Assembly (NCBI RefSeq): GCF_003334815.1
Contig: NZ_QOWO01000041.1
Length of the DNA: 33,046 nucleotides
Direction: 5' to 3' (one strand)
DNA from: Escherichia coli
GTDB lineage: Bacteria; Pseudomonadota; Gammaproteobacteria; Enterobacterales; Enterobacteriaceae
The stretch's first letter is position 1, and each line of letters begins with the position of its first letter. This document shows positions 32,840 to 32,971 of the stretch, piece after piece. The notes beneath the pieces are model-generated. The model was given only the letters and a program-made list of their open reading frames with translations. It made no database searches and was not told where the DNA came from. The position numbers were made by a program, and so were the translations under genes.

Positions 32840-32971
32840 CTTGCGGGATTATGCTGCCTTAATCATTCAGGATGGTGGGTCGTGCAGGATGACTCGACTT
32901 CGTCTCGCCCTTCGGGCCGTTGCTAACGCAACGTTATCCTTCACGTTCTCTACCAGTAACCACCTTTAAAT

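Follow-up and report, generated by a model that had tools for sequence, protein, structure and literature searches.

The repeated tRNA-Lys 3' end between lysZ and lysQ of Escherichia coli as the terminus of a tRNA-linked repeat

At one end of the DNA stretch analyzed here (33,046 nucleotides, hereafter the window), two tandem tRNA-Lys genes are separated by a spacer in which the 3' end of the upstream tRNA is found again. What is this copy, and how did it come to lie between two intact genes? The initial annotation had read it as a 17-nt relic, diverging from the tRNA beyond that point and left by integrase-mediated insertion or by unequal recombination between the tandem genes. The evidence gathered below points to another answer: the repeat is, very probably, the 3' end by which a tRNA-linked repeat (TLR) is defined. 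Such a TLR would be a cassette acting at the RNA level, its units being gained and lost via repeated tRNA ends.

The window end corresponds to the nadA-lysQ-lysZ region in reverse orientation, the lysT operon lying on the minus strand. Across the tandem genes this end was 100% identical to MG1655, which identifies them as lysZ and lysQ and makes the 132 nt at 32840-32971 the lysZ-lysQ spacer. It had also been remarked that a tRNA-Val gene, expected somewhere in the cluster, was missing from this spacer. It is indeed absent, the two tRNA-Lys genes being the only tRNAs detected here by ARAGORN, but the expectation was misplaced: in K-12, valT follows lysT and valZ follows lysW, that is, upstream and beyond the window end, and the absence of tRNA-Val from the lysZ-lysQ spacer is the normal K-12 arrangement. 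The sequence TGGTGGGTCGTGCAGGA occurred in three exact copies in the window, starting on the + strand at positions 32764, 32873, and 32972. Copies one and three are the 3' ends of the two minus-strand tRNA-Lys(UUU) genes. The middle one is a genuine direct copy, yet the identity covers 18 nt and not 17 (ATCCTGCACGACCCACCA as transcribed), beginning at the end of the T-loop and taking in the 3' strands of the T-stem and acceptor stem up to the CCA.

TLRs were first described in 1978 by Egan and Landy and are defined by 3'-terminal 18-19 bp identical to the upstream tRNA or rRNA gene (PMC8144298). Rudd (1999) recorded 22 of them in K-12, spread over ten loci that have between one and five copies each (PMC8144298). 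The strain table of PMC8144298, whose TLR names were machine-read and are of uncertain exact spelling but whose counts sum to 22 at 10 loci, places five at the lysT locus, after lysT, lysW, lysY, lysZ, and lysQ. The others are at tyrT/tyrV (four), serW (one), serX (four), the arg cluster (three), rrnA, rrnB, and rrnD (three), proK (one), and lysV (one). Since this list includes a lysZ copy, the window element is the catalogued lysZ-linked TLR; it is already known and does not represent a new kind of system. What we add is the co-variation of arm and repeat across tRNA types, orthology across genera, and allele frequencies in 5,426 genomes.

The sequence itself bore out this identification. The unit starts directly after the lysZ CCA, on the same strand and within the lysT operon, it ends with the 18-nt exact identity, and its core is common to the lysT-locus copies, to the tyrT copies, and to Arg and Pro copies of other genera. 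The Rfam RtT model (RF00391) matched positions 32873-33040 on the minus strand with 60.0 bits against a gathering score of 45 (E 3.4e-11), a score in which model positions 1 to ~60 were aligned onto the lysZ tRNA body, the 3' half being strong. The match terminated precisely on the repeated CCA. As to the RtT consensus structure, the closing helix and hairpins B and C were kept, with compensatory changes, and hairpin A was missing in the short form to which this copy belongs.

K-12 carries a module after each of its lysT, lysW, lysY, lysZ, and lysQ genes (n=5). We checked whether the other lysT-locus spacers lacked the module or scored below the RtT threshold; it was present, and above threshold, with 46-60 bits for the five lysT-locus modules and 133-137 bits for the four modules of tyrT, the locus on which the definition of the RtT family was based. 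The fifth lysT-locus copy, found in the K-12-like L001 and in MG1655, is longer and lies beyond the lysQ terminator. NCBI annotation puts the label 'RtT sRNA' on this post-lysQ copy only and leaves the four intra-operon copies unlabelled, perhaps because there the RtT model match overlaps a tRNA gene; in K-12's own annotation, none of the lysT-locus copies is labelled. Thus, the copied end is no isolated relic: the same module occupies every post-Lys spacer of K-12, occurs in the tyrT repeats, and elsewhere follows Arg, Pro, and Ser tRNAs. Nor does the sequence simply diverge past the repeat, which forms the last 18 nt of a conserved, folded module of 73-99 nt (Table 1).

Table 1. Features at the lysZ-lysQ end of the window, in the order of transcription.
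Feature	Coordinates	Strand	Evidence
lysZ, tRNA-Lys(UUU), 3' end repeated downstream	32972..33046 (window end cuts the gene; full extent 32972-33047)	-	ARAGORN; Rfam tRNA, 71 bits; 100% identity to MG1655 lysZ
Whole TLR unit (99 nt), beginning immediately past the lysZ CCA and ending on the CCA of the repeated end	32873..32971	-	Rfam RtT; block missing in short-spacer strains; fold of -34.3 kcal/mol
Variable 5' leader of the TLR, 26 nt	32946..32971	-	Sequence
5' arm of closing helix P1, CGUGAAGGAU, 10 nt	32936..32945	-	Arm changes with tRNA type; pair probabilities 0.79-1.0 in precursor fold
Hairpin B, CGUUGC-GUUA-GCAACG	32918..32933	-	98-99% of cells paired in both alignments; genus differences in the loop
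GCCC-GAA-GGGC motif, most conserved part of the core	32907..32917	-	Invariant in both alignments (A1 and A2); served as search pattern
Hairpin C, GAC-GAA-GUC	32896..32904	-	Compensatory changes, e.g., GAC/GUC to GGC/GCC, GCAU/AUGC
Exact copy of the tRNA-Lys 3' end, AUCCUGCACGACCCACCA, 18 nt	32873..32890	-	Repeat analysis; 3' strand of P1 plus single-stranded ACCCACCA tail
lysQ 5' leader, 33 nt	32840..32872	-	Near-identical 33-nt spacer in strain B2.3
lysQ, tRNA-Lys(UUU), last gene of the operon	32764..32839	-	ARAGORN; Rfam tRNA, 79 bits
52-nt block: lysQ 3' end, terminator hairpin (32733-32759), GCUAU	32728..32779	-	Overlapping BLAST segments against MG1655; L001 sequence; inverted repeat I1

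The 99-nt RNA was predicted to fold with a z-score of -2.67 relative to shuffled sequences. The 5' arm pairs with the first 10 nt of the copy, AUCCUGCACG, through nine of ten possible pairs and one A.G opposition, which leaves ACCCACCA single-stranded. When the 33-nt leader and lysQ were included in the folded RNA, the closing helix retained pair probabilities of about 0.8-1.0. GGUGG in the variable leader (32960-32964) could also pair with CCACC of the repeated end; this pairing was predicted in the minimum-energy fold of the 99-nt RNA and did not appear in the longer precursor fold. We also considered pairing of the repeat with the 5' acceptor strand of lysQ, in competition with folding of the tRNA, and dropped it because its predicted probabilities were ~0.001. 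The GCCCGAAGGGC motif is paired by Rfam with a segment that the short forms do not have, and its putative pairing here differs from the Rfam drawing.

The arm of the closing helix changes with the tRNA after which the module lies, being CGUGAAGGAU for Lys, GGGGAAGGAU for Tyr, and CAGGGAGGAU for Arg. The pairs formed by arm and repeat are CGTGAAGGAT with ATCCTGCACG for Lys, GGGGAAGGAT with ATCCTTCCCC for Tyr, CAGGGAGGAT with ATCCTCCCGG for Arg, and CGTGTGGG with CCCGCACG for Lys in Moellerella. Overall, the arm matched the copied end for Lys, Tyr, Arg, and Pro tRNAs, across Enterobacterales and in Gilliamella (Orbales). Between tRNA types, the closing helix underwent GC/CG, GC/UA, and AU/CG swaps, and hairpin C showed several compensatory swaps as well. 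In the short forms (n=16, Lys and Arg) 94% of cells were paired (0/500 shuffles; 28-48% in slid controls), and in the long forms (n=15, Tyr, Lys, and Pro) 90% were paired, with 10 two-sided pair changes (3/500 shuffles); because these controls remove shared ancestry incompletely and the structure was drawn from the same sequences, the figures count as support and not as proof. Independent covariation support for the RtT structure has been published (PMC8250186). Individual copies depart from the scheme: the post-lysQ copy of E. coli has a decayed 5' arm, and repeat copies with point changes, such as CACGATCC and CACGAGCC, exist.

Copy-number variation between strains had been suggested as a check on the origin of the repeat, and it was readily found. 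In K-12-like strains, the post-Lys spacers measure 135, 149, 146, and 132 nt and the fifth TLR is present after lysQ. Strain Z503 has spacers of 135, 51, 146, and 132 nt, O157:H7 RV06 has only four Lys genes with spacers of 35, 51, and 146 nt, and B2.3 has spacers of 35, 51, 48, and 33 nt in an operon devoid of any TLR; the fifth TLR is absent from all three. Each short spacer is exactly the sequence of the long allele past the repeated CCA, and the alleles therefore differ by a single, cleanly delimited unit, with the tRNA's own 3' end on one side and the copy of it on the other. At the lysZ-lysQ position, the entire spacer of TLR-less strains is the 33-nt lysQ leader alone.

At least 80% of the 132-nt spacer was present in 1,996 (37%) of 5,426 complete E. 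coli genomes; in most of the remaining ones, the match was confined to the repeat and the 33-nt leader or fell on the TLR of a different spacer. The post-lysQ TLR was present in 3,239 of these genomes (60%). At that site, MG1655 carries 156 nt more than the window: in K-12, two 52-nt blocks 156 nt apart surround the fifth TLR, and the window has one block and no fifth TLR. A megablast search with the lysQ-nadA junction of the window returned only two-piece K-12-like hits, at 100% identity, in a table where ties between one- and two-piece matches are inseparable. As judged from allele structures, the copy variation fits deletion, duplication, and unequal exchange between repeated tRNA ends. Unequal recombination, one of the two origins first put forward, would thus explain how many units a strain has, though it does not explain where the unit came from.

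A search for the core pattern CRACGRCCCGWAGGGYGA in a single genome of each species gave at least 120 loci. Among the matches listed, over half were chance occurrences inside genes of GC-rich genomes, so that the scan samples taxonomic range and is no census. The real copies among the matches listed came from Citrobacter, Enterobacter, Pluralibacter, Pseudescherichia, Siccibacter, Escherichia albertii, Erwinia, Pantoea, Mixta, Brenneria, Moellerella, Gilliamella, and an uncultured gammaproteobacterium. The tRNAs upstream of the listed copies were Lys(UUU), Tyr(GUA), Arg(ACG), Pro(UGG and CGG), and Ser(GGA), and in ~40 instances among the matches listed, covering all five amino acids, the last 17-19 nt of the copy were the 3' end of the upstream tRNA. 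The copies even tracked species-specific tRNA variants, ending in ...CACGCCCCACCA in a Citrobacter and in CCTCCTGGATGCACCA in Pseudescherichia. One hit (H30), which might have been taken for a plasmid-borne tRNA-Lys copy, turned out to be a noisy chromosomal gltX-valU-lysV-xapR contig with frameshifted genes throughout.

The age of the module could be approached at the lysT-valT spacer, which, TLR included, was alignable throughout between E. coli, Citrobacter werkmanii, and Pluralibacter gergoviae. Identities were 75-82% in the leader, 92-96% in the TLR, and 89% in the post-repeat part (C. werkmanii), the latter being shortened by a deletion in P. gergoviae. TLR differences between genera lay in loops or were compensatory. 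The alignment of this spacer across genera indicates that the TLR predates the split of the genera and is more constrained than its flanks. The type of module seen between lysZ and lysQ is, on these alignments, ancestral, and the idea of a recent scar does not hold against the orthologous lysT-valT copies in the two other genera. Universal conservation of the spacer within E. coli had been named as the result that would speak against a scar; the outcome was mixed, the spacer being far from universal in the genomes surveyed and the element nevertheless old and conserved. In other genera, too, TLR-bearing long spacers and TLR-free short ones formed a mosaic, and in Pantoea three tandem 156-nt units followed the last Lys gene. 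Differences in RtT copies between Erwinia pyrifoliae strains have been published.

Could the repeat have arisen otherwise? Chance plays no part: 100 dinucleotide-preserving shuffles yielded no copy of the 17-mer even with two mismatches allowed, which rules it out, and the arrangement recurs in the ~40 independent instances among the matches listed. The integrase reading supposes that a phage or island inserted into the 3' end of tRNA-Lys, that the repeat is the displaced end (attR), and that the 81 nt between the repeats are the remnant of an element or a tiny element mobilized in trans. Many tRNA-targeting integrases cross over in the T-loop, where the repeat starts. The layout fits as well, with an intact tRNA, an insert, a copy of the 3' end, and the original trailer, and empty-site alleles have the trailer directly after the tRNA, although repeat-mediated deletion predicts the same. 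However, the 81 nt contain no ORF and no element gene, and among 50,697 phage records no match to the 73-nt TLR came from a real phage genome: three matches were chromosomal contigs of Salmonella, and the fourth was an unannotated record of 7 kb. Moreover, the same core follows five Lys genes within a single operon as well as tRNAs for Tyr, Arg, Pro, and Ser, published TLRs also follow 5S rRNA (PMC8144298), the TLR-bearing lysT-valT spacer is orthologous across genera, and the core is a folded RNA with compensatory changes whose arm is complementary to the repeat, a property needless for an att arm. Insertion by an integrase, as suggested at the outset, is thus largely refuted as a recent event, and we regard it as extremely improbable altogether. 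A decayed tRNA copy, produced by unequal crossing-over between tandem tRNA-Lys genes and recognizable only by its 3' end, would agree with the recombination evidently active here, since the number of Lys genes is four or five and the 156-nt unit may be there, missing, or repeated three times in tandem; long-form TLRs also retain T-arm-like pieces such as GGTTCGAACCTGC. Yet the repeat analysis detected no similarity to tRNA-Lys upstream of the 18 nt, where identity stops, and ARAGORN and Rfam found no tRNA or pseudo-tRNA in the lysZ-lysQ spacer. Different tRNAs are followed by one and the same non-tRNA core, which is conserved above its flanks, unlike a decaying pseudogene, and no series of forms between a complete tRNA-Lys gene and the TLR core turned up among thousands of genomes. 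This makes a decayed gene a very unlikely source.

A different objection concerns function: TLRs might be selfish or neutral repeat DNA that persists through duplication of its flanking repeats and gene conversion, whose hairpins would have a role only in the DNA, if any, and whose RNA would be degraded as waste. TLRs are dispensable, for a K-12 strain deleted for all 22 of them is listed in PMC8144298 and is viable, showing that they are not essential, and since natural strains lack some or all lysT-locus TLRs, any benefit must be small or conditional. No stable RNA has been reported from the lysine spacers (PMC4176162). The mosaic of presence and absence within and between genera would also agree with repeat DNA, and the repeat follows species-specific tRNA variants as expected of gene conversion. 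Against this, compensatory changes in four helices, together with the refitting of the arm to every type of tRNA, speak for selection acting on base pairing. The core shows 92-96% identity between genera, its changes lying in loops or being compensated, and rtT and RrB have been reported as discrete processed RNAs (PMC8144298). We consider the selfish-repeat view rather unlikely and keep to the TLR as a probable RNA-level cassette.

How might such a cassette work? We picture the TLR as an optional RNA-level cassette inside the polycistronic precursor. The helix between arm and repeat closes a domain with internal hairpins and leaves a tRNA-like single-stranded ...ACCA tail. Since the end of the TLR would mimic a tRNA 3' end, the usual 3'-end machinery might define a discrete spacer RNA, possibly through an RNase E cut just after the CCA followed by exonucleases that the helix would halt. 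For rtT, which comes from tyrT, release of a discrete RNA has been reported; for RrB, located after 5S rRNA, it has been proposed, and the RrB 3' end maps 3 nt past the repeat (PMC8144298). Gain, loss, and tandem growth of units could occur via slippage or unequal recombination between the repeated tRNA ends.

For the lysT operon itself, published processing data describe one transcript of ~1,100 nt, which RNase P processes in the 3' to 5' direction (PMC4176162). In that study, the 133-150-nt spacers were treated as 3' trailers removed by RNase II and PNPase, RNase E cut the lysT-operon spacers only if RNase P was defective, and the repeats were nowhere mentioned (PMC4176162). Northern probes for the lysZ-lysQ spacer detected only the full-length precursor, in RNase P mutants, and no small stable species (PMC4176162). 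The original rtT phenotype has been retracted (PMC8144298). A preprint on CCA-selected libraries reported no CCA-ended non-tRNA reads, and the latest version of the CoCoNuT preprint contained no mention of rtT.

A bolder version holds that TLRs are folded cassettes that moved between tRNA operons via recombination in the T-loop, re-evolved their arms, and now serve as functional end mimics. Taken as a whole, this is speculative, and we think it improbable. If true, the copied segment would always begin with ...ATCC because recombination took place in the shared T-loop sequence, and the 5' arm would have re-evolved for each host tRNA into a mimic of its acceptor/T-arm end. The mimic could then be a decoy or a timer for 3'-end processing, the CCA-adding enzyme, or tRNA-end nucleases, tuning maturation of the cognate tRNA, and the presence/absence alleles of the lysT operon would be functional variants instead of neutral indels.

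Regardless of that version, the identification of the element has practical consequences. The lysZ-lysQ spacer merits annotation as a TLR, or RtT-like, feature, and not as a recombination or integration scar. The natural alleles with and without a TLR at each of the four spacers offer near-isogenic comparisons for tRNA-Lys processing. Without overturning current knowledge, the tracking of tRNA types by the arm, the conservation of the core across genera, and the clean alleles make the question of TLR function more testable.

Comparison with known systems helps to delimit what this element is. Like att-site repeats, it shows the end of an intact tRNA gene directly repeated further downstream, and its empty-site alleles are precise; it differs in that the insert after lysZ is a folded RNA module common to many tRNA types, with no element DNA and no real phage match in the 50,697 records searched. 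3'ETS-leuZ is, like a lysine TLR would be, a by-product of tRNA-precursor processing that could act once released (PMC8144298). It has no sequence relationship to the lysine TLRs, however, and is a base-pairing sRNA sponge; the lysine TLRs have no known target, Hfq binding, or stable species.

RrA, RrB, and RrF are TLRs located between the dual terminators of rrnA, rrnB, and rrnD (PMC8144298). They too contain an 18-bp copy of the end of the upstream gene, are co-transcribed with their operon, and have a repeat proposed to direct RNase E cleavage (PMC8144298). This dual-terminator layout resembles that of the post-lysQ unit of K-12. In contrast to the lysine copies, they lie downstream of 5S rRNA, and in vitro they bind both Hfq and CsrA (PMC8144298). 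TLRs from tRNA operons scored <0.01 in a predictor of CsrA binding (PMC8144298).

With the 178-bp repeats of tyrT (rtT, RF00391, rttR), the lysine copies have in common hairpin B, the GCCCGAAGGGC motif, hairpin C, the closing helix between arm and tRNA end, and the ...CCACCA terminus. Yet the copies of the lysine spacers are short forms of ~73 nt without the ~45-nt middle (hairpin A and the GAGCG..GCGAGA segment), and they score 54-60 bits where the tyrT repeats score 133-137. They also have the Lys end in place of the Tyr end and no tpr-like ORF, and release of a stable RNA has been reported for rtT and not for them. Set beside the TLRs catalogued in K-12, finally, the window is without the post-lysQ copy, and it holds one full lysT-locus TLR only because the sequence ends in lysZ. 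In everything essential the two agree: the unit lies directly downstream of a tRNA gene of the same operon, shares 18 nt with its end, contains the common core, and has its counterpart in the catalogued lysZ copy.

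Between MG1655 and the window, only 4 mismatches were counted across 25.5 kb (window 7226-32781). The 156-nt unit that MG1655 carries between lysQ and nadA, consisting of the fifth tRNA-linked repeat (TLR) and a second terminator copy, is missing from the window. Since this unit is flanked by 52-nt direct repeats, its absence could reflect either a real repeat-mediated deletion or the collapse of a tandem repeat during assembly.

Further towards nadA, the two TTACGCCTAAT copies enclose GTGCAGGATGCG, which reads CATCCTGCAC on the transcribed strand, that is, the same 10 nt that start the tRNA-end copy in the TLR. 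This segment may be a decayed TLR remnant. A search with RtT, the Rfam family of the TLRs, gave no match there with E up to 1, and strains Z503 and B2.3 have other sequence at this place.

Features discussed in this part, with their positions (window coordinates unless a comparison locus is named)
Feature	Position	Remarks
380-aa ORF	591-1733	matches phage family phrog_410, function unknown
Integrase ORF, intact, 356 aa	6086-7156	
Two adjoining ~100-nt copies, 92% identical	8590-8784	ybhJ-ybhC intergenic region
11-nt direct repeat TTACGCCTAAT	32611-32621 and 32639-32649	between lysQ terminator and nadA promoter (region 32608-32650)
lysQ 3' end, terminator and GCTAT	32728-32781	
lysY-lysZ spacer region	2404-2451 of comparison locus L001; also in comparison locus L004	tRNA-end copy of the lysY-linked TLR

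The lysY-linked TLR showed that identity between the tRNA-end copy and the tRNA gene is not always maintained, because in some strains this copy carries single-base changes (CACGATCCACCA in strain ECCHD184, CACGAGCCACCA in Z503), with the tRNA genes themselves unchanged. Among the loci fetched from other genomes, an E. coli record labelled as a 50-kb plasmid (NZ_CP098226.1, locus L129) was considered as a plasmid-borne tRNA cluster. This reading is disfavoured: the record spans a chromosomal region (gltX, valU-valX-valY-lysV and xapR) in which numerous genes are frameshifted, and a noisy or misassigned contig seems the better description.

At the opposite end, the first 7.2 kb (window 1-7248) are not K-12 chromosomal sequence and look like the end of a lambdoid prophage. 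Over 3161-7248 the sequence matches phage lambda at its int-xis-exo end with 98% identity, and no match to lambda was found for 1-3160 among the matches listed. Identity with K-12 runs from 7226 onward, adjoining ybhC, whose vicinity we take to be the lambda attachment site. The repeat pair between ybhJ and ybhC, seen as crossed BLAST matches against MG1655, probably belongs to a known intergenic repeat family.

Alcanivorax sp. 24 carries, on many contigs (loci L108-L122), a ~74-nt repeat, AAAAAATTGCCGGGAGCAATTTTTAACGTTGC NNNN CGACGGCCCGAAGGGTGACCGCCATGGACGGCGGTCAT, both dispersed and in tandem, which has the core AACGTTGC...CGACGGCCCGAAGGGTGA in common with TLRs. Inspection of the flanking sequence alone showed no tRNA-end copy at these loci. 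The hairpin with GCCCGAAGGG may be a module reused across unrelated repeat families. In three Oceanospirillales-type genomes, namely Neptuniibacter, Amphritea and a gammaproteobacterial MAG (loci L032, L053 and L056), tRNA-Arg(CCG) is followed by a TLR-like core in which 8-11 nt of the tRNA are copied (AATCCCTCCAG), without the full end to CCA. These cores may be distant or decayed TLR relatives, and the range of the family may then extend beyond Enterobacterales and Orbales.
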